Assembly: GCA_027492035.1 (NCBI GenBank)
Contig: JAOZFT010000015.1
Span: 9,043-73,042 of the forward strand
Direction: 5' to 3'
Length of the DNA: 64,000 nucleotides
Origin: Thermoproteota archaeon
Lineage (GTDB): Archaea > Korarchaeota > JAOZGF01 > JAOZFZ01
Position 1 is the first letter of the stretch. Every line of letters starts with the position of its first letter. Below, piece by piece: positions 11,740-33,158 of the stretch. Made by a program: the position numbers and the translations under genes. The notes below the pieces were generated by a model. That model saw only the letters and a program-made list of their open reading frames with translations. It did no database searches and had not been told where the DNA came from.

Positions 11740-11766
11740 TTTTAAACACCTTTAATAAATGCCCAA

Positions 11767-13173: not shown

Positions 13174-14574
13174 TTAGCCTTTTAAGATAGGTGGTATTTC
13201 AAGTTTAGCTTCAGCAACATCTGCAGGCCATATTGGTTTTGATTGTCCACCTTTCCATTGAAGCAATGGGAAGTGGAAGTGCTGTGCATCAGCAACTGTT
13301 TCTTGGAAGTGGCCTATTAATCTGCCGCTGGCATCGGTACAGTTTATTTTGTCGCATATCTTTATGTTCATAAAGAGTCCTTTGTAGTCCATACTTAACA
13401 ACGCAGCTCTTATTTTGTCAGGATCCATGCTTCCAGCTTTGTTTAAAGCATCTATTAACATCGAGAATTGGTCATGTGCCCAGTAACCACACACTACGGC
13501 TGAGGGTGTATAACCTAGCTGTGCTTTGTATTTGTTTACCCACGCCTTCTGTTCATCTGTTAAAACTGCAGTGGCATCCATGCTTAATACGTAATCTGAA
13601 GCCTCTCCTACTGCAGGGTACCACTCATCTACTGAGAACCATCCTATACCGAACGATGCAACAAATGCTTTCAGTTTCATTTCATGAACCTGTTTAAGGA
13701 ACGCTGTCAAGCTTGGGAGGCCAGTAGAAACTTGGTAAACCAAACTGATGTCAGCTGACTTATATTTGCTGATTAATGGCGTAAAGTCTGTTTCTGGCGG
13801 TGACAAGGTGAAGACGTCATAGTAGACTACTTGCCACCCGGCTTTTTCGAAAGCAGCTTTTAATGCATCCCCCATTCCTCTACCGTAATCTGTGTCTTCA
13901 ACAAGTAAAGCAACTTTTTTGTTTCTTGGCGTGTACCCTGCATCCTTTAATACTTCTTGGAAAGCAGGTACGAATAAGCTGGCATAAATTGGTGGACATG
14001 GCCAAAGTTTGAACCAGTACTTGCTCTCGTCAGGATTCTTTATTCTTTTATAGCATAGGAATTGAGTTTCCCCTACTGAACCCCAATGAATCTTATGATA
14101 CCTTGTAGAAATCTTGTATAGTGCCATTGCTACTGAACTGTGCCAGTTTCCTCCTAATATGTCAGCTCCAAGCCTTACAATCGCGTCTTCGTAGGCTTTA
14201 ACAGCTTCTTCTGGGTCTGATTTCGAATCAACCCAAATAAACTGTATGTCCCTCAGTTTTCCATCCACATACACTGGAATTTTTCCTTGCGCTTTTAATT
14301 CATTATAAGTGAAAAGAATAGCATCTTTGTATTGTTCTCCTGTTCGTGCAGCAGGTCCTGTTAAAGGGGCCACAAGTGCTATTTTGATAGGTGGCCCTGT
14401 CGGAGTTGGTGAAGCTGTTGGTGTAGCTGTAGGAGATGCTGTAGCTGTTGGTGTAGGTGTTGGAGTGGGTGAAGGAGGCTGCCCCACGCATCCAGATAGT
14501 ACCAGAATAGCAATGAGGAAGAAAGGAAGTACGTACTTACCTGAACCTATATATTTTGCCTTCATGATAGGCAC
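13174..14574 (-). CDS. ABC transporter substrate-binding lipoprotein, LivK/type-I periplasmic-binding fold (amino-acid type)
   Basis: Signal peptide plus lipobox-like LSGC, a Thr/Pro-rich linker (SPTPTPTPTATASPTATPTASPTPTG), then a LivK-like binding domain; upstream of the permease/ATPase genes. Confidence 0.8.
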   Translation of the reverse strand: MPIMKAKYIGSGKYVLPFFLIAILVLSGCVGQPPSPTPTPTPTATASPTATPTASPTPTGPPIKIALVAPLTGPAARTGEQYKDAILFTYNELKAQGKIPVYVDGKLRDIQFIWVDSKSDPEEAVKAYEDAIVRLGADILGGNWHSSVAMALYKISTRYHKIHWGSVGETQFLCYKRIKNPDESKYWFKLWPCPPIYASLFVPAFQEVLKDAGYTPRNKKVALLVEDTDYGRGMGDALKAAFEKAGWQVVYYDVFTLSPPETDFTPLISKYKSADISLVYQVSTGLPSLTAFLKQVHEMKLKAFVASFGIGWFSVDEWYPAVGEASDYVLSMDATAVLTDEQKAWVNKYKAQLGYTPSAVVCGYWAHDQFSMLIDALNKAGSMDPDKIRAALLSMDYKGLFMNIKICDKINCTDASGRLIGHFQETVADAQHFHFPLLQWKGGQSKPIWPADVAEAKLEIPPILKG

Positions 14575-15097
14575 CTAGAAGTTGGAAAACTTCCATTACT
14601 CTCTTGAATCTTTCACTCTCATGATTATTTTTTAAGACTAAACTTTAAGTAAAATTTATAAATCTTACCCTTTTTCCCCCTGACGTTCATCTTAATAATC
14701 CATATTTAAATTCTTTTACAACTCTGCAATTAAGTTTCCTGACAAATTTAGTAAGATACACGTATAAAACAGCTGTTTTTCAAGCGTAAATTAGGTAAAG
14801 TGTTGTATACTCTTTAAGTTCATGGTTTAAAATCGTTAAAATAATAATGATACCCTGATAGAAATACTATAAAGGCTCTTTTCTAGTATTATTGTTTATG
14901 GAAAAATTGGAAGATGGGTTACGTATATTCAAAAATTGTTCTATGAAAATGCAAGAAATAAAAATAAAAGATAAAATTTTTAAAGGAAAAATTAAGTATA
15001 AGATGCTTCAATTAATTCCTTACAAAAACCTTTTCTCACTTAATTAGATAAGAGAAAGGGAGTCTTTTTCCTTCAGGAGGATACGGGGGGAATTGAT

Positions 15098-15988
15098 TTG
15101 ATTTCGCCGGTTGAATTGTTGATAGTAAGCTTGTTAAGGGGATCTTTATACGTTTTAATTTCAGCAAGCCTTGCTATGCTCTTCGGTATAATCTCTGTAG
15201 CTAGTTTTTGCCATGGCGACTTTGCTATGCTAGGAGGATATCTTTCGTACTTTCTACTGGTTTCATTGGGACTTAACCCTATCCTGGCACTGGTGTTAAC
15301 TGCTGCTGTAATGTTCCTTTTCGGATGCTTAATCGAGAAATCACTACTTTTCCCACTCCGCAAAACTAGTGGAAAACTTTGGATGTTCTATACATTTGTT
15401 TTAACGCTTGGTATATCCCAAGTTTTGGAGAATGGTGCATTAGCTGCTTTTGGAGCGGCCTTTCTGGGCATTAAAAGCTTATGGCCTGGAAACATTAATT
15501 TACTGGGTACAGCAACTTCTTTAGATAGGTTTGCTATACTTGGAATAAGTGTAGGCATAGTTGTGGTTTTCTGGTTTTTCTTAAAATACACCAAAATTGG
15601 TCGAGCTATTAGGGCTGTAGGTATAAATGAGGAAGCTGCTTCGATTTTTGGGGTAAACGTAAACTTCATTTATACATTAACCTTTGGTTTGTCTGCATTA
15701 TTAGCAGGGATAGGTGGCCTTTTTTACATGGTGCTTTTCACAACGTATCCCTTAATGGGAGTTACTGCGAACTTAAAAGCTTGGATAGTTGTGGTAACAG
15801 CGGGTCTCGGTAACATAAAGGGAGCTATTTACTGTAGTTTTCTATTATCCTTTGCAGAGACACTAGCTTACACTTTCCTTTCTGCTGGGTGGCAAAACGT
15901 TATTTCCATAATCATTGTAGCTTTAATTCTCCTGTTCAAACCCACAGGTCTTTTCGGTACGGAGGTTAAAGGGATATGGGAGAGATAA
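15098..15988 (+). CDS. livH: Branched-chain amino acid ABC transporter permease (LivH-like)
   Basis: 296 aa polytopic membrane protein with LivH-family organisation; TTG start; overlaps the next permease by 13 nt. Confidence 0.75.
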   Translation: MISPVELLIVSLLRGSLYVLISASLAMLFGIISVASFCHGDFAMLGGYLSYFLLVSLGLNPILALVLTAAVMFLFGCLIEKSLLFPLRKTSGKLWMFYTFVLTLGISQVLENGALAAFGAAFLGIKSLWPGNINLLGTATSLDRFAILGISVGIVVVFWFFLKYTKIGRAIRAVGINEEAASIFGVNVNFIYTLTFGLSALLAGIGGLFYMVLFTTYPLMGVTANLKAWIVVVTAGLGNIKGAIYCSFLLSFAETLAYTFLSAGWQNVISIIIVALILLFKPTGLFGTEVKGIWER

Positions 15989-16932
15989 ACCTTCCGAAGC
16001 TAAAAACATTCAAAATACTCCCATACTTACTATTTGTGGTTGCACTTGTACCACCTTTGTTTAAAAACGAATACCTTAACAGCGTACTTATTTCAATTTT
16101 CCTGTGGGCAGCCATAGGGGCCTCCTTTGACCTCACTGCTGGCTTTATAAGAGTGACAAACTTTGGATATGCAGGCTTTTTTGCTATAGGAGCTTACACT
16201 TCAGGGTTATTAGCTTTATATTTCAATATATCTCCATGGATAGGAGTATTTCCTGCTGTGGCATTTGCTGCTGCTCTCGGTGCTCTTGTAGGTTTGTTGA
16301 CTCTGAGGCTGCATGGAATCTATGCTGCAGTTTTCAGTTGGTTCCTTGCAGAAACAATTAAGTACATACTTGCAGCAGCTTCAGATATAACAAGGGGATA
16401 TCAGGGTTTAATGAATCCGCCTCTCTTCCCAGGAATTAGTAGGTTTCCATATTATTACTTCATACTTGGCATCTTAGCCTTTGAAATAATAATCCTTACA
16501 AAAATAGCTAGGGGTAAAATGGGTTTTGCCTTTAGGGTAATAGGAGAAGATGAAACAGCAGCAAAGTCCATAGGGGTCAATGTGCTCTATTACAAAGTTT
16601 CCGCCTTTACAATTTCGACCGCGTTTGCAGGTTTACTAGGAGTTTTTTATGCACATTACATTGGAGTCATAACACCTGACGTAAGCAGTTTAGTAATAAC
16701 TGTGCCTGCACTAGCAATTTGTTACGTAGGCGGAGTAGGTTCAATATGGGGATCAATACCTTCTTCTTTTGTAATCATCACAATATTTGAGGCATTTAGA
16801 GAAATAGGAGCTTACAGATTCATAATCTACGGTGTGCTTTTAATAGTAGTCATGATATGGGCAAGGACTGGACTTGTGGGTTTAATAAGAAAAGCAGCAG
16901 AAAAAATGAAAGTTACAGAAAAAGAAAAGTGA
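15976..16932 (+). CDS. livM: Branched-chain amino acid ABC transporter permease (LivM-like)
   Basis: 318 aa polytopic membrane protein, second permease of the Liv-type system. Confidence 0.75.
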   Translation: MGEINLPKLKTFKILPYLLFVVALVPPLFKNEYLNSVLISIFLWAAIGASFDLTAGFIRVTNFGYAGFFAIGAYTSGLLALYFNISPWIGVFPAVAFAAALGALVGLLTLRLHGIYAAVFSWFLAETIKYILAAASDITRGYQGLMNPPLFPGISRFPYYYFILGILAFEIIILTKIARGKMGFAFRVIGEDETAAKSIGVNVLYYKVSAFTISTAFAGLLGVFYAHYIGVITPDVSSLVITVPALAICYVGGVGSIWGSIPSSFVIITIFEAFREIGAYRFIIYGVLLIVVMIWARTGLVGLIRKAAEKMKVTEKEK

Positions 16933-17040
16933 CTAGCTTTCCCCTCTTTCATTTTTTGCTTTTTCTAGCAATGTTTCCTGGCCTTTAAAAGGTATTATTT
17001 AAGGTATCTGGGAAAAAATAGAGGAAGGGTTTGTAGGGGA

Positions 17041-17778
17041 TTAAAGTCCTAAGTATGCCTTTTTCACATGCTCAGACTCTAATAGTTCATTACCTGCTCC
17101 CTCCATGACTACCCTACCCTGCTCCATGAGATAACCCCTATTTGCCATCTTAAGTGCACTTTCTACGTGTTGTTCAACCATTAATACAGTTATTCCCTCA
17201 TCCCTCACCTTCTCAACCACTTTAAAAAGCTCTGCAACTAAGGTAGGCATTAAACCTAGGGACATTTCATCTATCATTAGAAATGAGGGTTTAAGCATTA
17301 ATGCTCTTGCAACAGCAAGCATTTGTTGCTCTCCACCACTGAGGGTTCCAGCTAGTTGTCTCTTTCTTTCCTTTAACCTGGGGAACAGTTGATAAACAAA
17401 CTCTAATGAATCCTTTATTTCTTCTTCATTTTTTAGGTATGCTCCCATGAGAAGATTTTCGAAAACAGTCATTTTTTCGAAAAGCTGCCGTCCCTCAGGC
17501 ACCATCGCAACTCCAAGCTTAGCAATCCTGTGGGATGGAAGTTTACTTATCTCTGTTCCGTTAAAGAAAATTTTTCCCCTAGCCGGTTTAAGTAAACCTG
17601 CTACTGTTCTTAAAGTCGTTGTCTTCCCTGCTCCGTTAGGACCTATCAACGCAACAATTTCTCCTTTTTCAACATGGAGCGAAAGCCCCCATAAGGCCTG
17701 AAACTTCCCGTAAAAAACATCTATTGTTTCAATCTTTAACATTCCTATATTCACCTTAGAAAATGTATTTCTTTCCAA
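17041..17778 (-). CDS. livF: ABC transporter ATP-binding protein (LivF-like)
   Basis: Walker A GPNGAGKTT, ABC signature LSGGEQQ, Walker B MIDE; 245 aa. Confidence 0.85.
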   Translation of the reverse strand: MERNTFSKVNIGMLKIETIDVFYGKFQALWGLSLHVEKGEIVALIGPNGAGKTTTLRTVAGLLKPARGKIFFNGTEISKLPSHRIAKLGVAMVPEGRQLFEKMTVFENLLMGAYLKNEEEIKDSLEFVYQLFPRLKERKRQLAGTLSGGEQQMLAVARALMLKPSFLMIDEMSLGLMPTLVAELFKVVEKVRDEGITVLMVEQHVESALKMANRGYLMEQGRVVMEGAGNELLESEHVKKAYLGL

Positions 17779-18559
17779 GATAAGCTTTAATTACTGCTTC
17801 ATTACTAGCTATTTCTTTGGGGGTTCCTTCAGCGATTTTTTCACCATAGTGGAGTACAACTAACCTTTGTGCCACATTCATTATGAATCTCATGTTGTGA
17901 TCTACAACTAAGGTTGTAACTCCTTTCTCATGAAGTTTATTTATTAAGTTAATCATTATTGGTAATTCTGAAGGTGTTAAACCTGTTGCTGGTTCATCTA
18001 GTAGTATAAGGCTTGGGTCGGTTAATAACGCCCTAGCTAATTCTATCCTTTTCATTTCTACAACATTTAAACTTCCAGCTACTACATCCCTCTTCTCCAC
18101 TGGAAACTCTACAAACTGCATAGTTTCTAAAGCAGATTTCTTTGCTTCTTTGAAATCTGACAATTCCTTTCTACCAAACATTATTCCACTCATAACATTT
18201 TCAAGTGCTGTCATGTTCACAAAAAGACGTGTAATTTGGAAAGTTCTAGCCACTCCTTTCTTGCAAATGTATTCAGGTTTCTTACCTGTGATATCTTCGT
18301 CTTCAAAGTACACTTTACCTTCCTCAGGTTTATAAATTCCATTTATTACATTTAGAAGTGTTGTCTTCCCTGCTCCGTTAGGACCAACTAAACCCAAAAT
18401 CTCGCCTTTAAAAACATTCAAATTTACTTTGTTTACGGCTACAAGGCCGCGGAATCTTTTAACCACATTATCGGTCCTTAAAATTGTTTCTTCCATAAAA
18501 ACACTCCTCACACCTGTCATTGCATATTTTTGGGGGATGAATTTAAAAAAAATGGGCAT
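17756..18559 (-). CDS. livG: ABC transporter ATP-binding protein (LivG-like)
   Basis: Walker A GPNGAGKTT, Walker B LLDEPATG, C-terminal LivG-type extension; overlaps livF by 23 nt. Confidence 0.85.
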   Translation of the reverse strand: MPIFFKFIPQKYAMTGVRSVFMEETILRTDNVVKRFRGLVAVNKVNLNVFKGEILGLVGPNGAGKTTLLNVINGIYKPEEGKVYFEDEDITGKKPEYICKKGVARTFQITRLFVNMTALENVMSGIMFGRKELSDFKEAKKSALETMQFVEFPVEKRDVVAGSLNVVEMKRIELARALLTDPSLILLDEPATGLTPSELPIMINLINKLHEKGVTTLVVDHNMRFIMNVAQRLVVLHYGEKIAEGTPKEIASNEAVIKAYLGKKYIF

Positions 18560-18700: not shown

Positions 18701-20167
18701 GTGGTTTCGGAATTGCGAGAAGGAGTTAAAGGGGGGCAATTAAGGATTTTAAGTAACGAAGATTTGCGGCAAATTTATGTAGCAACCCTTCATCTACTTG
18801 AAAAGCAAGGTGTAAAGGTGGAAAATGAAAAAGCCTTAAACATACTGGCTAAATCTGGCGCCATGGTGGATAAAAGGAGGAAAATTGCTAAAATTCCAGG
18901 CTACATGGTTGAGGAAGCAATTAAAAAGGCACCGAAAAGTATAAGGCTTTGCGGCAGAAACAGAAACCAAGATTTTATTCTTGAAGGAAAAAGAGCTTAC
19001 TTTGGAAGTGGGGTGGGGACCACCCATATTTACGACCTTTATACTGGGGAATACAGAAAAACAAGGAAGAGAGACGTGGAGGACGCATTCAAGCTTTCAG
19101 ATGCTCTTCCAAATATTGATCATGCCTGGGGGTTGTTCAGTTGTACAGACGTACCTTCCAGCGTTGTTGGGCTCCATGAGCTTGAAGCAGGTTTAACAAA
19201 CACCACTAAACACATTTGCATCTACACTTGGCATGGCAAACCCCAAATAAATAAACAAATTGAAATGGCTAAGTTAGTAGCTGGAGGTGAAGAAGAACTC
19301 AGGAAAAGGCCTCTTGTCACCCTCTACAATGAGCCCCATTCACCTCTAACCTACGGAAAAGATTATTTAGATTCCTTAATGGAGTGGGCTAAAGCTGGGT
19401 TGCCTCAAATTTGGTACCCAGCCCCTATGTCAGGGGCTACTTCACCTGTAACAATGGCTGGGACACTGGTTCAAGGCTGGGCTGAGTCATTAGGAGGATT
19501 GGTGATAGCTGAACTCATTAACCCAGGAACCCCTTTCATTGTAGGTACAGGTACTTTCCTCATGGATATGAAGACTTCCTCTATAGTTTATGCTTCAGCT
19601 GAATGTATGCTTTTAGCCGTTGCAATAGCCCAGATTGCCCATTATCTAGATATCCCTCTATTTGGATTGGCAGGAGCCTCAGATTCGCAAGTATTGGACG
19701 GGCAGGCATTAGCAGAATCAGCTATGTATCTTGCTATTTCAGCTTTAGCAGGTCAAAACCTTATTCACGACTTAGGGTACCTAGCTTCAGGTTTAACGGG
19801 GAGTTTAGAACTTTTAACAATTTGTGATGAAATAGTGGCGATGGTTAAAAGGATAGCTAAAGGAATAAAAGTTAATGATGAAACATTAGCTTTGGGCGTA
19901 ATAGAGAAAGTAGGTTTTGGAGGGAATTACTTAAAGGAGAAACATACAAGGAAACATTTCTGGACTGAACACTTAGTTCCAGATTTAATGAATAGAGACT
20001 TTCACTCTGGATGGGTGAAAAAGGGAGGCAAAACTTTGGAGGAGAGGGCTAGAGAAAAAACAAAGAAATTACTTAAAGAACATGAGGTTGAGCCTTTAGA
20101 TAAAGAAGTAAAAAAGAAAATTGAAGAAATAATTAAGGAAACGACGAAAGAAACAACGAAAATATGA
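18701..20167 (+). CDS. MttB-superfamily methyltransferase (non-pyrrolysine trimethylamine-methyltransferase homolog; quaternary-amine:corrinoid methyltransferase candidate), paralog 1
   Basis: 488 aa uninterrupted ORF. Conserved MttB-family blocks include KIPGYMVEEAIKKAPK, AGGEEELRKRP, PLTYGKDY, GATSPVTMAGTLVQ and LAVEAI-like regions. No in-frame TAG. A TTG at 18713 giving MREGVKGGQLRIL matches the paralog N-termini better than the listed GTG start. Confidence 0.85.
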   Translation: MVSELREGVKGGQLRILSNEDLRQIYVATLHLLEKQGVKVENEKALNILAKSGAMVDKRRKIAKIPGYMVEEAIKKAPKSIRLCGRNRNQDFILEGKRAYFGSGVGTTHIYDLYTGEYRKTRKRDVEDAFKLSDALPNIDHAWGLFSCTDVPSSVVGLHELEAGLTNTTKHICIYTWHGKPQINKQIEMAKLVAGGEEELRKRPLVTLYNEPHSPLTYGKDYLDSLMEWAKAGLPQIWYPAPMSGATSPVTMAGTLVQGWAESLGGLVIAELINPGTPFIVGTGTFLMDMKTSSIVYASAECMLLAVAIAQIAHYLDIPLFGLAGASDSQVLDGQALAESAMYLAISALAGQNLIHDLGYLASGLTGSLELLTICDEIVAMVKRIAKGIKVNDETLALGVIEKVGFGGNYLKEKHTRKHFWTEHLVPDLMNRDFHSGWVKKGGKTLEERAREKTKKLLKEHEVEPLDKEVKKKIEEIIKETTKETTKI

Positions 20168-20184: not shown

Positions 20185-21189
20185 ATGAAGTTTTCTCATT
20201 TTATCACATGTGTAGATTCCCACACAGCAGGTGAACCAACAAGAATAGTTACTTCAGGCGTACCTAAATTAAGAGGTAAAACTGTAGCTGAAAAAAGGGA
20301 TTATTTCAAGGAAAATCTCGACTATTTACGAACCTTTCTCATGCATGAACCACGAGGCCATAACGACATGTTCGGGGCTGTAGTTGTTGAACCTTCTGAC
20401 GAAAAGGCAGATTTAGGAATAATTTTTATTGACTGCGGGGGATACCTTGACGGCTGCGGCCACGGCACAATAGGTGTAGCTACGGTAGCTGTTAAAACAG
20501 GATTAATTGAAGCAAGAGAACCTGAAACAAAAATAACCATAGAAACCCCTTCAGGCCTTGTTGAAACAATATGTGAAATTAAGGATGGCCACGTTGAGGA
20601 AGTCAAGTTAAGGAATGTACCCTCATTCCTTTATGATACTAAGGAAGTGGATGTGCCTGGTTTCGGTAAAGTAGAGATTGACATAGCTTTTGGAGGAAAC
20701 TTTTTCGCTATAGTTGACGTGAAACAAGTTAAACTTAAAATAAACCCCAAAAACTCCTTGAAACTGATAGATGCAGGGCTAAAAATAAGAGATGCAATTA
20801 ATAAACAAGTGGAAGTTATACACCCAATGAAGAAATACATAAACAAAGTAAATTTGGTGGAGTTTTATGACGACCCGGATATCCCTGAAGCCCACTGCAA
20901 AAACGTCGTTGTTTTCGGTAATGGTCAAATAGATAGGTCCCCTTGCGGCACAGGCACAAGTGCAAAAATTGCAACCCTGTATGCGAAGGGGAAATTAAAA
21001 CTTGGAGAAGAGTTCATCCATGAAAGCATATTGAAAACTGTTTTCCGTGGAAAAGCTTTGAAAGAAACAAAAATAGGGAAATTTAAGGGGATCATCCCGG
21101 AAATAAAGGGTAAAGCATACATCACTGGCTTCAATCAATTAGTGATGGACCCAAAAGACCCTTTGAAACATGGGTTCCAATTAAAATGA
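20185..21189 (+). CDS. Proline racemase / 4-hydroxyproline epimerase family enzyme (both catalytic Cys present)
   Basis: 334 aa; motifs DCGGYLDGCGHGTIG and DRSPCGTGTSAK match the two Cys-containing catalytic motifs of proline racemase family enzymes. Confidence 0.8.
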   Translation: MKFSHFITCVDSHTAGEPTRIVTSGVPKLRGKTVAEKRDYFKENLDYLRTFLMHEPRGHNDMFGAVVVEPSDEKADLGIIFIDCGGYLDGCGHGTIGVATVAVKTGLIEAREPETKITIETPSGLVETICEIKDGHVEEVKLRNVPSFLYDTKEVDVPGFGKVEIDIAFGGNFFAIVDVKQVKLKINPKNSLKLIDAGLKIRDAINKQVEVIHPMKKYINKVNLVEFYDDPDIPEAHCKNVVVFGNGQIDRSPCGTGTSAKIATLYAKGKLKLGEEFIHESILKTVFRGKALKETKIGKFKGIIPEIKGKAYITGFNQLVMDPKDPLKHGFQLK

Positions 21190-21323: not shown

Positions 21324-22610
21324 GTGCCGAGATATGATGTAGTAGTGGTTGGGGCTGGAATTCTAGGTTTAACTTCAGCATATTACATAAAGAAGTGGAA
21401 CCCGGACAAATCCGTCTTAGTTATTGATAAGTTCGCTTCAGCTGGCCAAGGGAACACTGCAAAAAGTGAAGCTTCATTCAGAAACGTTTTCTCCTCCAAG
21501 ACAAATTTCTTTTTGGCTGACAGCTCTGTTGATTTTTATTTCCACCTCCAAAATGATCTAGGTTACAATCTTGGCTTGCATAAGATAGGATACTTATTTC
21601 TTTTAGGTGAAACAAGTTACAGAAAAGAAATAAATGTATTCAGAGAAGTTGAGAAGAAAGGGGTGGAAGTCGAGTACTTTGAAAAAGATGACTTGGAAAA
21701 AATGATTCCAGGCGTTGTTTTAGAATTCAGTAGCGAAGATGAGGAAGCTAAAAGACTTAACTTAGAAAACGTTGTGATGGGTGTTTTAGGTAAGAAATGC
21801 GGTTATTTAGACGCTGATTCGCTGGTGAAGTTTTACGAAGAAAGTTTTAAAAAAGAAGGAGGCCTTATTCAGTATAAAACATTGGTTACTGAATTAATTC
21901 TTGAACCCTTAGAAAAATACTGCATACCTGGTGAACCTTTTACGTGGCAAGAAGCAAAAATAATGGGAGTAAAAACAAATAGGGGGGAAATAAGGGCTGA
22001 CACTGTGGTAGTGGCAGCAGGTGCTTGGTCAAACATCCTCCTTGACCCTGTAGGAATAGATGCAAGGGTGAAACCTAAGAAAAGACAAATTTTTGTGTTG
22101 AAAGGGGAAAGCCTTGAGCCATTATTTAACATTAAAGGGTTCAACAAGGAGAGGGTTCTTCCATTTGTGGCTATGCCTACAGCAGAGATTTACCTCAGGC
22201 CATGTATAGAGGAGAAAACTTTCTGGGTTGGTTGCACAGATGAGTTGGGGAGGAAATTTGAGCTCGAAGAAGACCCTCAACCAGAAAAATACTTTTACAT
22301 TTACGGGATCAGGCTTGTACTGGAAAAGTACTTTCCCCATTTCAGGAACCTTAAACCGCTTAATGCATGGGCTGGTCAATACACACAAAACTCTTTAGAT
22401 GCAAACCCTTACATTTTTGAGGAGGCTGGTGTAATAACTGTTACAGGAGCAAGTGGAAGCGGAATACTTAAAGGAGATGCAATCGGCAGAGTAGCAGCTG
22501 CTTTATATATGGGTGAAGACTACGCCGAACTTTATGGCGGAAGGAAATTTAAAGTAAGTGACCTTGGAGTGGATGAAAGAAAGGCTGAAAAGGAAGAGTT
22601 AGTGCTCTAA
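21324..22610 (+). CDS. FAD-dependent oxidoreductase, DAO (D-amino-acid/sarcosine oxidase-like) family, paralog A
   Basis: VVVVGAGILGLTSAYYI dinucleotide-binding motif, 428 aa; clear paralog of 44622..45890. Confidence 0.75.
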   Translation: MPRYDVVVVGAGILGLTSAYYIKKWNPDKSVLVIDKFASAGQGNTAKSEASFRNVFSSKTNFFLADSSVDFYFHLQNDLGYNLGLHKIGYLFLLGETSYRKEINVFREVEKKGVEVEYFEKDDLEKMIPGVVLEFSSEDEEAKRLNLENVVMGVLGKKCGYLDADSLVKFYEESFKKEGGLIQYKTLVTELILEPLEKYCIPGEPFTWQEAKIMGVKTNRGEIRADTVVVAAGAWSNILLDPVGIDARVKPKKRQIFVLKGESLEPLFNIKGFNKERVLPFVAMPTAEIYLRPCIEEKTFWVGCTDELGRKFELEEDPQPEKYFYIYGIRLVLEKYFPHFRNLKPLNAWAGQYTQNSLDANPYIFEEAGVITVTGASGSGILKGDAIGRVAAALYMGEDYAELYGGRKFKVSDLGVDERKAEKEELVL

Positions 22611-22702: not shown

Positions 22703-23992
22703 ATGAAAAAGACACTGATTAAAAATTTAGAGGGTGTACCCCAAACCAAACTTCTTTATTTTAAAGACCCTTACAAATTCAAGTTTAAGGCAGAAATTTT
22801 GAAAAAATGGGAAGTAAATGGGAAAATGTATATAGTACTGGACAAAACCTATTTCTATCCAGAAGGTGGAGGCCAGCCATCAGACAAAGGTTATGTCTCA
22901 GTTGAGGATAAAAAGTACTCGGTTGTGGATGTGCAGAAAATTAAGGGCGTCATTGTTCATGAGTGTGTCCCTTCAACTACTAAATCCTTAGAGGGAAAAG
23001 AGGCTTTAGGTGAGATTGATTCTAAAAGAAGAGTTTCTAATATGCGTTGCCACACAGCCTCACACATAGTGATGTCTGCTATCGAAAAAGTTAAGGGAAA
23101 GGCACAGTACGCAGGTTTTGGAATAGAGGAAGGTAAAGTTAGGTTAGATGTTCAAACTGAGAAAATAACACCCGAAGACTTAGAGGAAATAGAAAGGCGT
23201 TCAAACAAAGTTATTTACCAAGCCATACCTGTAAAAACATACTTTGTTTCAAGGAGTGAACTGGAAAAGATTCTGACCGGTCTCCACTGGGCAAAGGAAA
23301 TACCCCTAGAGGAAAAAGTGAGGATAGTAGAGATTGAGGGTTTCGACAAAAGTATCTGCAGCGGAACACATTGTTTAAACACTATTGAAATAGGGATGAT
23401 CAAAGTAATTAACAAGTTTAGGCTACAGAAGGGGGTTGAAAGGATAGAGTTCTTAGTTGGGGAGGAAGCAGTTAATGAAACCCTGGACTACATGAACAAA
23501 TTAAGTTCTTTAGCTAGGAAACTGAATATTTCAGCAGAAGAAATACCTAATGTCCTTATGAAGTTAAGGAATGAGAAAAAGAGAATGGAAAAAGAAATTG
23601 AAGAAATGAAGCAAGAGTTAACTGAATCAAAATTCAGAAACTTGATAAGTAAAAAAGAGCTGATAGGAACTGTGGAGGTAGTAACTGGGCTCTTAAGGGA
23701 AGCAAACGCCAAAACCCTGGGGAGACTGGTGAAAAAGGAGATAGAGGAAAACGAAAATTTATTCATTGCTGTGGGGGGATTAAGTGGAAAACCAGCATTA
23801 GTTGCTGGAGGTGGGTCTCAACTTATTAAGAAAGGATTAAACGTAAGTCAGGTAGTCAGTGAAGTATGTCAAACATTGGGTGGGAGAGGTGGAGGGTCGA
23901 AAAACATAGGTTTTGGTGGAGGTTTAACAAGTGAAAACATTGCGAAAGCCGTTGAAAAAGTGAAAGAAAGAATTGTGTCATTCATTAAATGA
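22703..23992 (+). CDS. alaX: AlaX-L type alanyl-tRNA editing protein (AlaRS editing domain plus C-terminal Gly-rich domain)
   Basis: HxxxH (HTASH) and CxxxH (CSGTHC) zinc-binding editing motifs of the Thr/Ala-tRNA synthetase second additional domain; C-terminal GGRGGGSKNIGFGGG as in the AlaRS C-terminal domain. Confidence 0.7.
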   Translation: MKKTLIKNLEGVPQTKLLYFKDPYKFKFKAEILKKWEVNGKMYIVLDKTYFYPEGGGQPSDKGYVSVEDKKYSVVDVQKIKGVIVHECVPSTTKSLEGKEALGEIDSKRRVSNMRCHTASHIVMSAIEKVKGKAQYAGFGIEEGKVRLDVQTEKITPEDLEEIERRSNKVIYQAIPVKTYFVSRSELEKILTGLHWAKEIPLEEKVRIVEIEGFDKSICSGTHCLNTIEIGMIKVINKFRLQKGVERIEFLVGEEAVNETLDYMNKLSSLARKLNISAEEIPNVLMKLRNEKKRMEKEIEEMKQELTESKFRNLISKKELIGTVEVVTGLLREANAKTLGRLVKKEIEENENLFIAVGGLSGKPALVAGGGSQLIKKGLNVSQVVSEVCQTLGGRGGGSKNIGFGGGLTSENIAKAVEKVKERIVSFIK

Positions 23993-24026: not shown

Positions 24027-25019
24027 TTAAAGGGGGAAGTGTTTGCCTACCCCCTCTTGCAGAGACTTGGTGTAAGCATGTTTTGCTGTAACGGCATCTT
24101 GAACAGCTAACCCTACAGATTTCCAAAGGGTCACTTCATCCCTTGAAACTCTACCCTTTTTTAAACCAGTAACTACCTCCCCTAGTTCTGCGTAGACATG
24201 GCCTTCAGTTATTGCCCCCTCTTTTATGGGAATTATTATGTCTCCAGATTCCGCTAACACTGCCTCTTTTGAATCAACAAAAACTTTTGATTTCTTAACA
24301 GTTTCCGTATCCAACTCTCTTGCGTCTTTCCCCATCCAACCAATTGAGTTAACATGTGTTCCAGGTTTAATCCATTCCCCCTTTAAAACAGGTTTAACCG
24401 AGGTTGTGGCCACTATTAAAACATCACTTGGTTCAACTGCTTTTTCTGCAGTTTCCACGCTTCTGCCTTCAATCCTAAACCTTTCATTAATTTTTTCAGC
24501 TAACTCTTCAGCTTTGTCTTTCACAACATCATAAACTAAAACTGTTTCTATTTCCCTTACTTCTTTCACAGCCCACACTTGGGTAAATGCTTGTTTTCCA
24601 GCCCCTATTACCCCCAAAACCTTAGAGTCTTTGCGAGATAAATACTTAGTTGCTAAACCAGTTGCAGCACCTGTTCTTAAAGCAGTTATGTAACTTCCAT
24701 CCATAAAAGCTAAAGGTTCACCTGTTTCCGGGTTGTTAAGCTGGATAGTTGCATATATTGTAGGTAACTTATGTTTAACAATGTTATCGGGGTATACTGA
24801 AACAATTTTGACAGCTAAAGAGTTAAGGGGTTCAACGTAAGCCGGCATGTAAAGCATTGTGCCTCTATATTTTTTAATATTTATTATCGGCCTTAATGGA
24901 ACTTCCGTTTCTCCCTTAACAAATGCTGAAAAGGCCTTCTCCATTAAATCAATAACTTCTTTCATATCCAGAACTTTCTTTAAGTCTTTTTCAGTTAAAA
25001 GTAAAACCAAATATTTCAC
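24027..25019 (-). CDS. Ornithine cyclodeaminase/mu-crystallin family protein (OCD, archaeal alanine dehydrogenase or pyrroline-2-carboxylate reductase-like)
   Basis: 330 aa; Rossmann motif VIGAGKQA and family-typical layout. Confidence 0.8.
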   Translation of the reverse strand: MKYLVLLLTEKDLKKVLDMKEVIDLMEKAFSAFVKGETEVPLRPIINIKKYRGTMLYMPAYVEPLNSLAVKIVSVYPDNIVKHKLPTIYATIQLNNPETGEPLAFMDGSYITALRTGAATGLATKYLSRKDSKVLGVIGAGKQAFTQVWAVKEVREIETVLVYDVVKDKAEELAEKINERFRIEGRSVETAEKAVEPSDVLIVATTSVKPVLKGEWIKPGTHVNSIGWMGKDARELDTETVKKSKVFVDSKEAVLAESGDIIIPIKEGAITEGHVYAELGEVVTGLKKGRVSRDEVTLWKSVGLAVQDAVTAKHAYTKSLQEGVGKHFPL

Positions 25020-25221: not shown

Positions 25222-27069
25222 TTGGTGATGAAGTTGCATGGTTGGAATGGTAAAATCTTAAGGGTGAATCTATCTAGCTCGAAAGTATCTGTTCAAAAGT
25301 ATGGGGCAGATTTTGCTTTGAAATTCATTGGAGGCAGGGGATTCGCAGTTAAGATTTTATGGGATGAACTTAAATCTGGGGTGGATGCTCTCTCTCCATT
25401 GAATAAACTTGTTATAGCTGCTGGTCCGTTAACAGGTCTACCTGGGCCAAGTACAGGTAAACTTGTGCTTGCAGCTAAAAGCCCTTTAACGAATGGGTAT
25501 GGAGACGGGAACATAGGTGGGTTAGCAGCTGTGCATTTAAGAAAAGCAGGTTATGATGCTTTAGTAATTGAAGGAAAAGCTGAAAAACCTTCCTACTTAT
25601 ATGTAGAAAACGAAAATGTAAGTTTGTTAAGTGCTGACGGTATATGGGGGGAGACAACATTTAAGGCTGAAAATAAATTGAGAGAGGTTCATGGGAGGAA
25701 TATAGGGGTTTTAGTAATTGGACCAGCAGGAGAGAACCTGGTTAAATACGCAACTGTAATTTCTCAAGAGGGAAGGGCTGGTGGAAGGCCGGGTATAGGT
25801 GCAGTTATGGGTTCAAAGAATCTAAAAGCCATTGTGCTTAAAGGAACAAAGGAAATTTCTTTAGCAGACCCAAAAAAACATAAAGAAACAGTGAAGGAAT
25901 GTTACAAATCTATACAGGAAAACGAGAATTATTCTTTCTGGGTGAGACAGGGAACCATGGGTGTAGTGGAGTGGTGTCAAGAAAACAGTACACTGCCCAC
26001 TTTTAATTTCAGAGAAGGAGTTTTTGAGTTTTCAAGGATGATTGACGGTTACACTATGGAAGCCATGAAAATAAGTAGAAGGGGGTGCCCTAACTGTAAC
26101 ATGATGTGTGGAAATGTGGTTGTTGATTTGGAGAGAAAAGATTCTGAGTTAGATTACGAAAACGTAGCAATGCTTGGTTCAAACATTGGTTTAGGTCACC
26201 TGGGAAAAGTTTCGGTTTTAAATAGGTTAGCTGACGAATACGGAATAGATACGATTTCATTGGGTTCAAACTTAGCTTTTGCAATGGAGGCTACAGAGAA
26301 AGGTTTATGGAAGGATGGAATTGAGTGGGGAGACTTCGAAGCTGCAAAAGCACTCGTTGAAGACATTACATATCGCAAAGGTCAAGGTAACCTGTTAGCT
26401 GAAGGAGTAAAAAGGGCTTCTGAAGAACTGGGTGGTGGATCTGAACAATGGGCTATTCACGTTAAAGGACTTGAAGTTTCTGCTTATGACTGTCATACAG
26501 CCCCTGGAATGGCTCTAGCTTACGGCACTTCACCAATAGGTGCCCACCATAAAGATGCATGGGTTATTTCATGGGAAGTAAGCACAAACAGGTTAGGATA
26601 TGGAAAAGAAAAAGTTGATAAAGTAATAGAATTCCAAAGGATCCGTGGAGGAATGTTTGAAACGTTAGTCGCCTGCAGACTCCCATGGATAGAGCTTAAT
26701 TTCAGTCTTGAGTGGTACGTGAAGTTGTTTAAAACAGTTACGGGTATAAGTTTAACATTGAATGAACTGGCTGGAACCGTTGCAGACAGGATTTATTGTT
26801 TAATGAGAGCTTTCTGGGTTAGAGAGTATGGTGAAAAGTGGAACAAAGAAATGGACTATCCACCATCCAGATGGTTCAATGAACCATTAACTAAAGGGCC
26901 TTTTAAAGGAGGAAAGCTGGACATGAAAAAGTATGAAGAAACACTTTTGCTGTACTACCGAGAGAGGGGGTGGGATGAACGAGGCATCCCCAAAAAAAGT
27001 ACCTTTGATAAATTGGGTCTCCAAAAGGAAGCAGTTGAACTTGGTAAACATGTCTCTTTAATCCCCTGA
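25222..27069 (+). CDS. aor: Tungsten-containing aldehyde:ferredoxin oxidoreductase (AOR family)
   Basis: 615 aa; N-terminal AFOR_N-like region ([12 protein letters not shown]...), conserved Cys residues for the 4Fe-4S and pterin domains, typical length. Confidence 0.85.
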
Positions 27070-27811: not shown

Positions 27812-28684
27812 TCAGAATGCGAGAGCTACTAAACCCACTAAAACAACTGTTACTCCTATTTTTTGATGTGTTAGAACCCTTTCTCCCAAAAACAAATGCG
27901 CAAGTACAAGTGTTAATGCCGGGTAACTTGTAGCTATCGGGGACATCAAAGAAACCATCACTCCACTTCCAAGCCCAAACATAAAGGTTAAGTTTCCAGC
28001 CATACTTGAAACTCCACTCGCAAGCGAAAAAGAAAAATGTTTCTGCGACTTCACTTCTCTCAATTTCAGTTTAGCCATGATTGAGAAGAGGAGTAAATAA
28101 AAAGTTGTTAATGATCTTACACCTAAGAAGGCTAAAAGTTCAGTTGCTTCTTTAACAAGGGGTTTATAAAGGCACCAGGTGAAACCGAAACATAAAACCG
28201 ATACTAAAGCGAAATTTAAACCTATAATTAGTTTTAAACTTTTTTTCACTCCCTTTATTTCTTCAAAATCAATTGAAGCAAGGGACACACCTAAAAAAAC
28301 TATCAAAATACCTATTGTTTCTATTAAACTTAGCCTTTCGTTCAAGAAAAAGTACGATAAAACAATTGCAAATGCTGCTCCTCCGGAGTTGGCTATGGGA
28401 GCCATCAAGGAAATTTTACCGTATTTCAAAGATTTAATGTACATGTAGTAGCCAAGAGTGTAAAATAAACTTGTTGAAATGAAAAGGAGGAAAATTTCTT
28501 TAGTAGGGGCGGGGAAACTTGACTGGAATGGAAGGAAGAGTAAGCCGGCAATTAAACCCGTTAATTGGATGTAAAAAGTTGTTTTTAACTCATTTATTCT
28601 TTCAAGTGCTAATTTGGCAAGGAAATCCCCTGTGCCGAAGAAAAGGAGGGTGAGAATGCCGTAAACAGGCCCAGGGATTAGCAT
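27812..28684 (-). CDS. EamA/DMT-superfamily transporter
   Basis: 290 aa, about 10 TM helices in two repeated halves. Confidence 0.7.
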   Translation of the reverse strand: MLIPGPVYGILTLLFFGTGDFLAKLALERINELKTTFYIQLTGLIAGLLFLPFQSSFPAPTKEIFLLFISTSLFYTLGYYMYIKSLKYGKISLMAPIANSGGAAFAIVLSYFFLNERLSLIETIGILIVFLGVSLASIDFEEIKGVKKSLKLIIGLNFALVSVLCFGFTWCLYKPLVKEATELLAFLGVRSLTTFYLLLFSIMAKLKLREVKSQKHFSFSLASGVSSMAGNLTFMFGLGSGVMVSLMSPIATSYPALTLVLAHLFLGERVLTHQKIGVTVVLVGLVALAF

Positions 28685-28701
28685 TCAACCATCTGCCTTT
28701 T

Positions 28702-29985
28702 TTAAAGTGTAGGGATAGTTATTGAACCATAGGGAACAACTAACACTTCAGCGTCTCTACCTTGTAGTTGAAAAGCCTTGTTTAACGCCTCCTCTACTGT
28801 ATCTTCTCTTTTGAAACCGAATACTGAAAGATCCTCATTTGAAAGGTTACCGGAAACAACAGACACGTTAACTTTCTCTCTTAAAAATGAAAGTTCATAA
28901 ACCATGCATCCTAACACACTTGAAAGCCTCCCCTCCTCAACTAAATTCAGGATATCTTCAGGTTTCAGGGAGAAAATCTCCTTTTCATGTTTAATAATGT
29001 GCTCGGAAACTCCTTCATAGCATGGTGAAACATAAATTAAGGAACCGTTATCCTTAATGATTGGTTCAACTGATGCAAGAGCTCTTGTACCTCCCTGTAG
29101 AAAACTTACGTCATGTTCTTTGAATCCGCTGCTGCACACAACAATATCTGCTTTTCCTGGAGATTTTATCCTTGCAAATTCATCAAGTTTCTTTACTCCT
29201 TCCCGATGAGCCTTTACTATGTCTCCAGAAACAACTTCCACTATTTTTTTCTTATGGTTCAGGACAGTGTTCACAACCATGTCCACGTTTGTTTTTGAAC
29301 CTGCTTCTTCTATATCTTCCCTGACTAAGTTCCCTTTCAATACCCCAAATAAACTTGACCTTTTAATTTTGGCTAAAACCTTTGTAAATAATGAATGATT
29401 TTTCTCTATTGTTTCTCGGCTTGAAACACCTGGCAGAACAGTTTTAGCTCCCCCTGAATAACCTGCAAGCATACATGGAGTTATATTACCTGTAATTATC
29501 TTTATTTCCGCTTCAGCAAAGTCCTTATTAACTTTTAAAGGAGTCAAGTTAGCTGTAACCCCTAAATAAACATTTGTTTCGCTATCCGGGTCATGATTAA
29601 ACACCTTTACCTTCCCAATAACTTCCTCTCCCACATTTCTCTTTATTAGCTCCATCGAATCAGGTCGATGGAGACCTGTAGCAATAATCACTTTCAGATT
29701 TTCATACTTAACTCCCCTACCGTGAAGTTCTTTTAGGAGCACCGATAAAATTTCTTTATTAGGTGTGGGCCTTGTACTATCTGTTACAGCTATGGCTACA
29801 TCCTTCCCCTTTAAATTTTGTGAAAAAAGTGAATTTTTGCCTACTGGGTTATTTAACGCCTTCTTCACTAATTCCTTCACTTTTACATCTTTAACTGTGT
29901 CCTTAGGTGTTAGAACCCCCTTAACATTTCCCCTATCTACAGTAAACTTTAAGAACGTTTCTCCATAGGGCACCTCCACTTCCAT
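28702..29985 (-). CDS. larA: LarA-like nickel-pincer-nucleotide-dependent racemase/epimerase (lactate racemase family, DUF2088)
   Basis: 427 aa; IAVTDSTRPTP, IIATGLHRP and CMLAGYSGGAKTVLPGV align with the LarA blocks IISSDHTRPVP, ILVATGFHRP and FFAGFSGGRKSVLPGI. Confidence 0.75.
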   Translation of the reverse strand: MEVEVPYGETFLKFTVDRGNVKGVLTPKDTVKDVKVKELVKKALNNPVGKNSLFSQNLKGKDVAIAVTDSTRPTPNKEILSVLLKELHGRGVKYENLKVIIATGLHRPDSMELIKRNVGEEVIGKVKVFNHDPDSETNVYLGVTANLTPLKVNKDFAEAEIKIITGNITPCMLAGYSGGAKTVLPGVSSRETIEKNHSLFTKVLAKIKRSSLFGVLKGNLVREDIEEAGSKTNVDMVVNTVLNHKKKIVEVVSGDIVKAHREGVKKLDEFARIKSPGKADIVVCSSGFKEHDVSFLQGGTRALASVEPIIKDNGSLIYVSPCYEGVSEHIIKHEKEIFSLKPEDILNLVEEGRLSSVLGCMVYELSFLREKVNVSVVSGNLSNEDLSVFGFKREDTVEEALNKAFQLQGRDAEVLVVPYGSITIPTL

Positions 29986-30170: not shown

Positions 30171-31223
30171 GTGAGTAAAGTGAGTAATAGAGTAAAAATA
30201 ATAATGTATGGGCTTGGCTACATGGGAAAAGAAATTGCTAAACTGTTACTGAAAAAGAAAGGGGTTGAAATAGTTGGTGCCATAGATATCTCTAAAGACA
30301 TTGTTGGAAAGGATTTAGGAGAAGTTTTAGGGGTAAAAAAAGATTTAGGTGTAACTGTGACTGACGACTCCAAATCTCTTCTTTCAAAAGTTGAGTCAGA
30401 CATAGTTGCGCATGCAACAACTTCCTATTTAACTCAAACATTTTCGCAAATATCTGAATGCGTAATGGAGGGTTTTAATGTCATATCTACATGTGAAGAA
30501 CTCTCTTACCCTTTCAAAAAACATCCTGAACTTGCAAATAAGCTTGACAGGTTAGCTAAAGAAAACGGTGTAACAGTTTTAGGTACAGGGATAAACCCCG
30601 GTTTCTTAATGGACACTTTACCAATAGTGTTAACTGGGCTTTGTCAAGACGTTAAAAAGGTGAAAGTGACCAGGATGATGTATTCAGGTAACCGTAGAAT
30701 ACCTTTCCAGAAAAAGATAGGTACAGGGCTTTCCCCTAACGAATTTAAGCAAAAAATTGAGAAGAAAGAAATAACTGGACATGTTGGTTTAAACGAATCA
30801 ATTGCACACATTGCCGCTGCTCTAGGATGGGAACTGGAAAAAATAGTGGAAGAACCTCCTGAACCTATAATTGCAGAAAAAGAACTTAAAACAAGCTATA
30901 CTACAGTAAAAAGGGGCCAAGTTGCAGGGTTAAAAAGTGTAGGTAGAGGATTAATTCAAGGGAGGGAAGTCATAACTTTGGAGTTTATTTCCCATGCAAG
31001 CGTCGAGGAACCATATGATGAGGTAATAATTGAAGGTACTCCTTCAATACATGAAAAGATAATTGGTGGAGTTCATGGAGACCTAGGTACAGTGGCAATG
31101 GTGGTTAATATGATACCTAAAGTGATTAACGCAAGGCCTGGATTGTTAACAATGAGAGATATGCCTCTACCCTCAGCTGTGCTAGAAGATATGAGAATTT
31201 ACTTAGAATGGGAAACTCCTTAA
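30171..31223 (+). CDS. NAD(P)H-dependent amine dehydrogenase, DapB-N-terminal-like (2,4-diaminopentanoate dehydrogenase family)
   Basis: 350 aa; N-terminal Rossmann motif IIMYGLGYMGKEIAKLLLKKKGVEIVGAID, typical length for this family. Confidence 0.6.
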   Translation: MSKVSNRVKIIMYGLGYMGKEIAKLLLKKKGVEIVGAIDISKDIVGKDLGEVLGVKKDLGVTVTDDSKSLLSKVESDIVAHATTSYLTQTFSQISECVMEGFNVISTCEELSYPFKKHPELANKLDRLAKENGVTVLGTGINPGFLMDTLPIVLTGLCQDVKKVKVTRMMYSGNRRIPFQKKIGTGLSPNEFKQKIEKKEITGHVGLNESIAHIAAALGWELEKIVEEPPEPIIAEKELKTSYTTVKRGQVAGLKSVGRGLIQGREVITLEFISHASVEEPYDEVIIEGTPSIHEKIIGGVHGDLGTVAMVVNMIPKVINARPGLLTMRDMPLPSAVLEDMRIYLEWETP

Positions 31224-31252
31224 CTTTTAAACTAAACAGGGGCTTGTAGGAG

Positions 31253-33157: not shown

Positions 33158-33158
33158 T

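Follow-up and report, generated by a model that had tools for sequence, protein, structure and literature searches.

We propose that the two flavoproteins DAO1 and DAO2, encoded in a 64,000-nucleotide stretch of DNA from a Thermoproteota archaeon (contig JAOZFT010000015.1; hereafter the window), are two further members of an already known family, the L-proline dehydrogenases of the Aeropyrum pernix type, DAO1 a typical one and DAO2 a divergent one, and thus ordinary in kind. An earlier note on this DNA had read them otherwise. It saw each of them beside a homolog of the corrinoid-dependent methyltransferase MttB, took the repeated pairing for a functional couple, and suggested a cascade in which the corrinoid enzyme removes the first methyl group of a quaternary amine and a sarcosine or dimethylglycine oxidase-like flavoprotein removes the following ones, or oxidizes the resulting amino acid. 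The explanation that we favor, and consider probable if well short of certain, is that both proteins belong to the A. pernix type, that DAO1 works in a proline module, and that their proximity to MttB genes reflects a shared genomic island.

The two open reading frames (ORFs; Table 1) encode homologous DAO-family flavin adenine dinucleotide (FAD) enzymes, as the earlier note had said and as BLASTP and Pfam confirmed. Aligned end to end, DAO1 and DAO2 are 51% identical, with 72% positives (E 1e-155), far exceeding chance, and PF01266 (Pfam DAO) is the sole domain in each (146 bits in DAO1). In a PDB sequence search, the best matches for both proteins were 3AXB and 3VQR, by their titles a dye-linked L-proline dehydrogenase and a mutant thereof. 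DAO1 aligned with 3AXB from residues 1-428 on 1-428 (E 6.6e-85, 40% identity) and DAO2 along its full length (E 4.5e-81, 37% identity); next came the beta subunit of Pyrococcus PDH1 (1e-17) and then SoxB, MSOX and ThiO at 1e-9 or weaker. The A. pernix enzyme has been employed as an L-proline-specific coupling reagent (PMC4364671). We modeled both proteins with AlphaFold2 (pLDDT, the predicted local distance difference test, of 87 for DAO1 and 90 for DAO2), and 3AXB was again the top match of both models in Foldseek (E ∼4e-48). The runners-up PDH1-beta, SoxB and MSOX reached E values of 1e-27 to 1e-25, and DMGDH too fell more than 20 orders behind 3AXB. The template modeling (TM) scores were 0.93 (DAO1) and 0.91 (DAO2) to 3AXB, versus query-normalized values of 0.72 and 0.68 to 1Y56_B.

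The resemblance to 3AXB thus comprises full-length collinear homology, near-equal length (428 and 422 versus 428 residues), the N-terminal GxGxxG, the fold and a ...LVL tail, to which DAO1, but not DAO2, adds the SGSGI(L/M)K.D..GR loop. The differences are an identity of just ∼40%, a DAO2 loop that reads TDRGIQISPSLGK, and the host: A. pernix is an aerobic crenarchaeon, whereas DAO1 and DAO2 come from an anaerobe-type, methyltransferase-rich archaeon. The tail deserves attention. The C-termini read ...EELVL in DAO1, ...YELVL in DAO2 and ...ERLVL in 3AXB, and among 230 family members, with a modal length of 428 amino acids, 224 end in Ile or Leu. In A. pernix, Leu428 reportedly folds back and shuts the active site, and its deletion is said to lift the Km for proline several hundred-fold. 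The 3VQR chain has exactly one residue fewer than 3AXB, and the missing one is the terminal Leu. This length, the ELVL ends and the predominance of terminal Ile or Leu would all fit such a role. The N-terminal motif and the shared GGRKFKVSD described in the earlier note are both present, but the latter is not the C-terminus, since ∼20 more residues follow, up to the conserved ...ELVL.

The NCBIfam models for the demethylating relatives gave a consistent answer. DAO1 scored 71 bits against monomeric sarcosine oxidase (soxA_mon, cut-off 480), 70 against soxB (cut-off 529) and 52 against N-methyltryptophan oxidase (MTOX, cut-off 257), and the Sox and MTOX scores of DAO2 were below these already insufficient values. 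The models for enzymes acting on D-amino acids scored lower still with DAO1: 45 bits for DadA (cut-off 383) and 29 for the Thermoproteal D-proline dehydrogenase (pro_dh_Thprot, cut-off 600). Neither flavoprotein gene is adjoined by a SoxA-, SoxD- or SoxG-like gene, as judged from the window ORFs and Pfam. The description of the two proteins as sarcosine or dimethylglycine oxidase-like therefore does not hold, 3AXB being by far the closest characterized relative, and we predict that both are archaeal dye-linked L-proline dehydrogenases of the "third type", that is, homodimeric FAD enzymes such as 3AXB. The other branch of the earlier suggestion, oxidation of the resulting amino acid, agrees with the kind of enzyme identified, on condition that the amino acid is proline.

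Although DAO1 and DAO2 are paralogous in the broad sense, as had been proposed, they did not arise by recent duplication. In a neighbor-joining tree of 60 sampled family members, DAO1 clusters with P0002-P0006, to the exclusion of DAO2, in 100 of 100 bootstraps, and DAO2 groups with sequences from Geothermarchaeales and Nitrososphaeria; the smallest clade holding both spans a median of 41 of the 60 taxa. Because they lie in separate clades with so wide a joint clade, they are old paralogs or xenologs, one of them perhaps laterally acquired. The DAO2 clade itself consists of DAO2, a same-species copy and one ortholog (83%-84% identity) from a sister metagenome-assembled genome (MAG), Thermoproteota archaeon Flange_M5_B4; the next similarity is 52%. 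We considered a segmental duplication of an MttB-DAO unit and rejected it, since the two arrangements differ in orientation and content and the flavoproteins sit in different clades. Paralog pairs are recurrent within the subfamily, because tandem copies, ∼80 nt apart and 46%-50% identical to DAO1, occur at three Bathyarchaeia loci (L023, L035, L053). One segment departs from the overall pattern of descent. The stretch PEKYFYIYGIR(L/P)VLEKYF is present in DAO1 (residues ∼312-336; 22260-22330), DAO2 (∼307-331; 45550-45620) and the DAO2 ortholog, and missing from DAO1's own clade, the sister-MAG DAO1 ortholog included; from its start, DAO1 and DAO2 are 78% identical over 96 nt. Partial gene conversion from DAO2 to DAO1 is a possible origin, and co-evolution, for instance at a shared dimer interface, is another.

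The two proteins differ most in a loop that we take to be flavin-proximal and homologous to the SGHGF(K/M) of MSOX and PDH1-beta. DAO1 retains the SGSGI(L/M)K.D..GR loop of 3AXB, reading GASGSGILKGDAIGR, while in DAO2 (residues 372-384) it is replaced, and DAO2 with its orthologs reads SATDRGIQISPSLGK. We scored deviations at the 86 columns with a conservation of 95% or more across the family: DAO1 is off-consensus at 3 and DAO2 at 10, six of them inside the loop, whereas other members have a median of 1, with 4 at the 95th percentile. The altered loop recurs in the only orthologs of DAO2, the same-species copy and the 84% identical sister-MAG protein. That DAO2 is a pseudogene can be rejected: its ORF is intact, its model reaches a pLDDT of 90, and the 84% ortholog carries the same altered loop. 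DAO2 is best described as an old, lineage-restricted paralog that appears to have kept the fold and the C-terminal Leu and changed its flavin environment; because this flavin-proximal loop is rewritten, its substrate probably differs.

Given this assignment, is the association with MttB conserved? We searched the window proteins against 82 loci anchored on the DAO subfamily (median 13.8 kb), 80 of them from species-representative genomes, mostly Bathyarchaeia, at 47%-65% identity, and 2 metagenomic at 68%, and counted MttB within ∼10 kb. MttB occurred near the flavoprotein at a single locus, as did a corrinoid protein and a partial MtrH; MtmB was found at none of the 82. The sole positive locus, L001, belongs to the sister MAG, and its MttB is 36% identical to MttB1, with an AOR gene (tungsten-type aldehyde:ferredoxin oxidoreductase) between it and the DAO1 ortholog. 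The sister MAG carries orthologs of DAO1, DAO2 and MttB1 on three contigs with different neighbors. Its MttB1 ortholog (69%) stands beside genes for a permease and a metallophosphoesterase and has neither a ProR (proline racemase family) nor a DAO gene nearby; its DAO2 ortholog (83%, L069) comes third in a co-directional run, after LarA-like (71%) and EamA (73%) genes, at gaps of 30-47 nt and with no MttB adjacency. The window holds homologs of these LarA-like and EamA genes (Table 1). The nickel-pincer racemase homolog and the EamA transporter, the ancestral partners of DAO2, point to no clear substrate.

The reverse look gave a similar result. A metagenome scan with MttB1 had returned 7 loci at no more than 39% identity, of no use for context, and we relied instead on a protein search with contig look-ups. 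A DAO-subfamily flavoprotein is encoded at none of six independent MttB-clade loci; they show typical triads of MttB, corrinoid protein and MttB, with peptide transporters and peptidases. The only other flavoprotein-MttB neighborhood that we met is at one of these, L093 (4773-14757), and its flavoprotein is of a different type: the set comprises a DAO beta-like protein of 381 amino acids, SO_alpha_A3/Fer2_BFD, Fer4 and a Pyr_redox_2 alpha-like protein of 483 amino acids, and adjoins corrinoid protein, MttB, major facilitator superfamily (MFS), MttB and LarA genes. The window order is found again in L094 and L095, contigs from the same species that do not count as independent evidence, and the adjacency of DAO2 and MttB3 is retained only in L095.

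Within the window, too, the two arrangements are unlike and do not represent one duplicated unit repeated. MttB1, the racemase and DAO1 are co-directional, with DAO1 downstream of the racemase as the earlier note had it, at a gap of 134 nt rather than 150; DAO2 and MttB3 converge end to end, again as described, with 28 nt rather than 29 between the stop codons. A layout with one DAO adjacent to a methyltransferase gene and the other within two genes is expected by chance with P = 0.04-0.07, assuming random order and 3-4 methyltransferase genes among ∼49. With MttB at 1 of 82 DAO loci, DAO at 0 of 6 MttB-clade loci and the sister-MAG orthologs dispersed, the functional couple fails, at the level of the neighborhood, the refuting condition that the earlier note had set for it. 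We infer that coupling to MttB is absent, and the proximity is best explained by a shared island dense in methyltransferase and amino-acid-catabolism genes rather than by a conserved partnership.

These data bear directly on the hybrid cascade, in which the two flavoproteins would be N-methyl amino acid oxidases or dehydrogenases, releasing as formaldehyde those N-methyl groups that are left once MttB has removed the first. The chemistry is compatible with the DAO fold class, which includes SoxB, MSOX, MTOX and DMGDH; proline and N-methyl pockets overlap, as seen in a monomeric sarcosine oxidase with bound L-proline (PDB 9U3C); and a flavin N-methylproline demethylase, HpbA, exists in bacteria (PMC3950512). 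The rewritten flavin loop could moreover be read as a change of specificity in precisely the copy that abuts MttB3. Against this, both proteins fall inside the 3AXB family, far below the cut-offs of the Sox, MTOX and DMGO models; DAO1 is typical in its conserved columns and its family is not linked to MttB; the sister-MAG DAO2 ortholog sits in the LarA-EamA operon instead of by MttB; and DAO2 and MttB3, because they are convergent, are not co-transcribed. The Pfam scan found no folate- or pterin-binding (GCV_T-type) C-terminal domain in DAO1 or DAO2, in agreement with the earlier note, which had called a domain binding tetrahydrofolate or tetrahydromethanopterin (H4MPT) absent. Free formaldehyde would be costly for a thermophilic anaerobe. 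The comparative evidence gives no support to the cascade, and we regard it as very unlikely.

What recurs beside the DAO subfamily points instead to proline. An arginase-family protein is found at 36 of the 82 loci and AOR at 11, followed by ProR, proteins of the ornithine cyclodeaminase (OCD) family, PepQ-like M24 dipeptidases and AlaX-like proteins at 3 each; unbiased clustering of the neighbors gave the same ranking. AOR is directly adjacent to the flavoprotein gene at 9 loci, mostly ∼80 nt downstream on the same strand. These 9 are orthologs of the window AOR (61%-79% identity), with more distant AORs near DAO in L081 and L083. The pair runs DAO then AOR ∼80 nt on in L027, L043, L062, L070, L072, L073 and L078, and is divergent in L001 and L038. 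OCD homologs stand beside the flavoprotein in L036, L071 and L083. Around the closest relatives of DAO1 (68%), the order is AOR with a ferredoxin, a PepQ-like Xaa-Pro dipeptidase, an AlaX-like gene, in some cases OCD, and DAO, with no MttB. We also considered the M24 neighbor as a creatinase or ectoine hydrolase, a partner of sarcosine oxidase, and found this less likely (PepQ 303 bits versus DoeA 124, all below cut-off). The AlaX-type gene adjoins DAO in L081 (8608-9906) and L083 (7559-8878) and lies nearby in L064; this AlaX-L-type protein is persistent in the DAO1 clade without an obvious link to proline oxidation.

One of these neighborhoods is on a chromosome-scale contig of Bathyarchaeia SPRUCE 345 (L071:2606-13829). 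It encodes ProR, the large and swivel subunits of AcnX (of the cis-3-hydroxyproline dehydratase type), a glycyl-radical activase, HypD, OCD, DAO and the alpha, beta and gamma subunits of a 2-oxoacid:ferredoxin oxidoreductase. Its glycyl-radical enzyme passes the NCBIfam cut-off for trans-4-hydroxy-L-proline dehydratase (HypD; 1332 bits, cut-off 1100). The whole has the look of a complete anaerobic hydroxyproline and proline cluster, and we know of no description of this gene combination for Bathyarchaeia.

In the window itself, DAO1 is most likely an L-proline dehydrogenase within a comparable module. A Liv-type ABC importer would bring amino acids into the cell; its assignment rests on a Peripla_BP_6 binding protein together with permease and ATPase ORFs whose Pfam labels come from the same-species contig L094. 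ProR would convert D-proline to L-proline. It carries the catalytic pair Cys91 and Cys254 in GCGHG and SPCGTG motifs, the same pair as the Cys-Cys type ProR/HypE enzymes that have been described (PMC4364671), and scores 511 bits as a proline racemase (NCBIfam cut-off 556) versus 368 as a hydroxyproline epimerase. The OCD-family enzyme could supply L-proline from ornithine or pyrroline-2-carboxylate (Pyr2C); it scores 368 bits with the OCD-family model and 279 with that for Pyr2C/Pip2C (piperideine-2-carboxylate) reductase, both below cut-off. By homology, DAO1 would then oxidize the N-C5 bond of L-proline on its FAD, yielding delta-1-pyrroline-5-carboxylate (P5C), and hand two electrons to an acceptor. 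P5C would open to glutamate-5-semialdehyde, which AOR, with ferredoxin, may oxidize to glutamate; we assign this step to AOR because its adjacency to DAO is conserved, which suggests a tungsten enzyme in place of a P5C dehydrogenase.

A close known parallel is the cluster of Thermococcus litoralis, which shares the trio of Cys/Cys ProR/HypE, L-proline dehydrogenase and OCD/mu-crystallin Pyr2C reductase as well as amino-acid transporter genes (PMC4364671). Its dehydrogenase is of the heteromeric PDH type (alpha4beta4 or alpha-beta-gamma-delta), whereas DAO1 is of the single-subunit 3AXB type, a non-orthologous replacement; the MttB homolog and AOR further distinguish the window cluster. With ProR directly upstream of DAO1 and an OCD/Pyr2C-reductase-like gene nearby, one could also picture the flavoproteins as D-proline dehydrogenases that turn the D-proline made by the racemase into Pyr2C, to be reduced to L-proline by the OCD enzyme. 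A D-proline dehydrogenase does exist in Pyrobaculum (cited in PMC4364671). Yet DAO1 scores far below the cut-offs of the D-proline dehydrogenase and DadA models, the nearest enzyme with a solved structure is, going by the title of its PDB entry, specific for L-proline, and a route from D-proline through Pyr2C to L-proline would be redundant with the racemase. We consider this highly improbable, and return to L-proline oxidation by DAO1 as the favored role.

Several observations weigh against the proline module and the shared island. Many of the 82 loci are from Bathyarchaeia, so that neighbors such as the arginase-family and metallo-beta-lactamase (MBL)-fold proteins may reflect inherited synteny instead of function, and several housekeeping genes recur beside the subfamily too. 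Identity to the sole characterized member is only 37%-40%, for which reason L-proline as the substrate is inferred. No P5C dehydrogenase and no physiological electron acceptor were identified for DAO1. The MttB and corrinoid-protein pair of L001 is only 2.2 kb from the sister-MAG DAO1 ortholog, and in L093 a PDH-type, heteromeric proline-dehydrogenase-like complex stands beside corrinoid-protein and MttB genes. Genome-wide, finding both DAO genes near MttB genes has a probability of 1e-5 to 3e-3 under random scatter, although catabolic genes are not randomly scattered. Finally, only 18 nt separate MttB1 from ProR; this gap suggests that the two are co-transcribed, and hence that some link between methyltransferase and proline chemistry exists in this host.

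How far such a link can be taken depends on the MttB homologs. MttB1-3 are uninterrupted ORFs of 485-488 amino acids with no in-frame UAG (PF06253, 304-328 bits), mutually 51%-57% identical and 30%-33% identical to MtgB and MttB (MttB1 33% to both). They belong to an uncharacterized TACK/Asgard MttB clade treated in earlier work (PMC11291895). The pyrrolysine column holds Ala in MttB1 and Cys in MttB2 and MttB3. In MtgB, the Arg at R312 forms a salt bridge with the substrate carboxylate and is conserved in the characterized acidic quaternary-amine methyltransferases (PMC13080624). The corresponding residue is Phe in MttB1 and Trp in MttB2 and MttB3; H348 is retained in all three, and the positions of the cation-pi aromatics Y97 and F356 are not aromatic. 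Like the non-pyrrolysine quaternary-amine enzymes MtgB, MtpB, MtcB, MtyB and MthB (PMC13080624, PMC8604678), they carry PF06253 and no in-frame UAG, and as in MtgB-type systems their genes are accompanied by those for corrinoid proteins and MtrH/MtgA-like partners; the low identity and the loss of R312 and both aromatics set them apart. Because the R312-equivalent Arg is absent, a betaine substrate for MttB1-3 is itself only putative. Their archaeal relatives show the same pattern at the R312 and pyrrolysine columns and keep H348; MttB1-3 and these relatives may act on a substrate class distinct from that of the known acidic betaine methyltransferases.

The tight spacing of MttB1 and ProR, on one strand with DAO1 134 nt on, argues for a coupled route without flavin demethylation: MttB1, with a corrinoid protein and an MtrH-like protein, would demethylate a methylated proline (N-methylproline or proline betaine), and ProR and DAO1 would carry the proline to P5C and glutamate. 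The window does hold a full methyl-transfer set, in which MttB2 is joined by a corrinoid protein (39315-39971) and by a protein of the MtrH family (314 bits, above the cut-off of 287), and the sister MAG has its MttB and corrinoid-protein pair close to the DAO1 ortholog. Such a route would be the anaerobic counterpart of the proline betaine catabolism of Paracoccus denitrificans and Rhodobacter sphaeroides, which proceeds through the HpbD racemase, the HpbB-C Rieske demethylase, the HpbA N-methylproline demethylase and PutA (PMC3950512). The logic of that proven aerobic pathway, a racemase, two demethylations and proline dehydrogenation, is the same, and the order of its chemistry (racemase, first demethylation, flavin step, proline to glutamate) is the one envisaged in the earlier note. 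The families differ: the O2-dependent Rieske oxygenase, the enolase-superfamily racemase and PutA have no member in the window. The arrangement is moreover confined to same-species contigs, the sister-MAG MttB1 ortholog lacks a nearby ProR or DAO, the substrate-binding residues of MttB1 depart from those of MtgB as described, and no OpuA/ProU or BCCT betaine-type transporter lies nearby, the adjoining importer being Liv-type. To our knowledge, no corrinoid enzyme takes the second methyl off N-methylproline, which also counts against the route. On balance we hold it to be unlikely.

A broader version is a shade more doubtful still. It takes MttB1, ProR, DAO1 and AOR as a pathway for methylated proline, anaerobic and recently assembled in this hydrothermal Thermoproteota lineage (stachydrine or N-methylproline), in which methyl groups would pass through the corrinoid protein and the MtrH-like protein to a pterin, the ring through DAO1 and AOR to glutamate, and an N-methylated intermediate to DAO2.

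Among other genes of the window, the LarA-family protein scores 335 bits with the malate racemase LarAH6 model of NCBIfam, below cut-off. Upstream of the importer (9932-13074) are a luciferase-like monooxygenase (LLM)-class F420-type oxidoreductase, whose best match is methylene-H4MPT reductase (Mer), below threshold, a protein of the EutA/arylmalonate decarboxylase family and a class-III aminotransferase; in L092, too, the MttB1 ortholog is followed by an LLM gene. A run of amino-acid fermentation genes (30171-36744) directly adjoins those for MtrH, MttB2 and the corrinoid protein, with a 2,4-diaminopentanoate dehydrogenase-like protein (Ord, 347 bits, below cut-off), the alpha and beta subunits of an indolepyruvate-type ferredoxin oxidoreductase, an HpaB/4-hydroxybutyryl-CoA dehydratase-family protein and a class-III aminotransferase. 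This run gives a hint that methylated amino compounds lose their methyl groups before they are fermented. Beyond MttB3, a DUF2284 metal-binding protein and a MoxR-AAA/vWA protein (47559-50083) adjoin the gene of an MtmB homolog and that of a corrinoid protein belonging to it (50139-52194). The MtmB homolog is uninterrupted, hence non-pyrrolysine, and has no NCBIfam match; another non-pyrrolysine MtmB homolog, MtqB, demethylates tetramethylammonium and choline (PMC13044021).

Table 1. Genes of the window discussed in the text
Feature	Coordinates	Strand	Assignment and basis
DAO1	21324..22610	+	428 aa, GTG start; FAD-dependent dehydrogenase, predicted member of the A. pernix-type homodimeric dye-linked L-proline dehydrogenase family
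DAO2	44622..45890	+	422 aa, ATG start; predicted divergent paralog, same family; altered flavin-loop motif
MttB1	18701..20167	+	Non-pyrrolysine MttB-superfamily methyltransferase; PF06253, 323 bits
MttB2	37861-39318		MttB paralog
MttB3	45919..47385	-	Non-pyrrolysine MttB homolog, convergent with DAO2; PF06253, 304 bits
ProR	20185..21189	+	Proline racemase family; PF05544, 426 bits; 18 nt after MttB1, 134 nt before DAO1
AlaX	22703..23992	+	AlaX-L-type protein; tRNA_SAD and DHHA1 (Pfam, NCBIfam)
OCD	24027..25019	-	OCD/mu-crystallin family (ornithine cyclodeaminase or pyrroline-2-carboxylate reductase); PF02423, 281 bits
AOR	25222..27069	+	Tungsten-type aldehyde:ferredoxin oxidoreductase; AFOR_N and AFOR_C domains
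Importer	13174..18559		Liv-type ABC importer for amino acids, with a binding protein, two permeases and two ATPases; upstream of MttB1
EamA and LarA family	27812..29985	-	EamA transporter and LarA-family (nickel-pincer racemase-like) genes; Pfam EamA; Lar_N, LarA_C

If true, the methylated-proline pathway would be the first in which proline betaine is degraded completely without oxygen, and would show how anaerobes achieve this; the present evidence does not favor it. The case also cautions that function read from adjacency can mislead in islands dense in methyltransferases. For the flavoproteins themselves, the assignment offers a testable function, that of a 3AXB-type L-proline dehydrogenase, for a large archaeal family of more than 1,300 homologs whose public labels read only "FAD-dependent oxidoreductase" or "FOXRED1-like", and it would place this family in the proline, hydroxyproline and arginine catabolism of Bathyarchaeia and related archaea.

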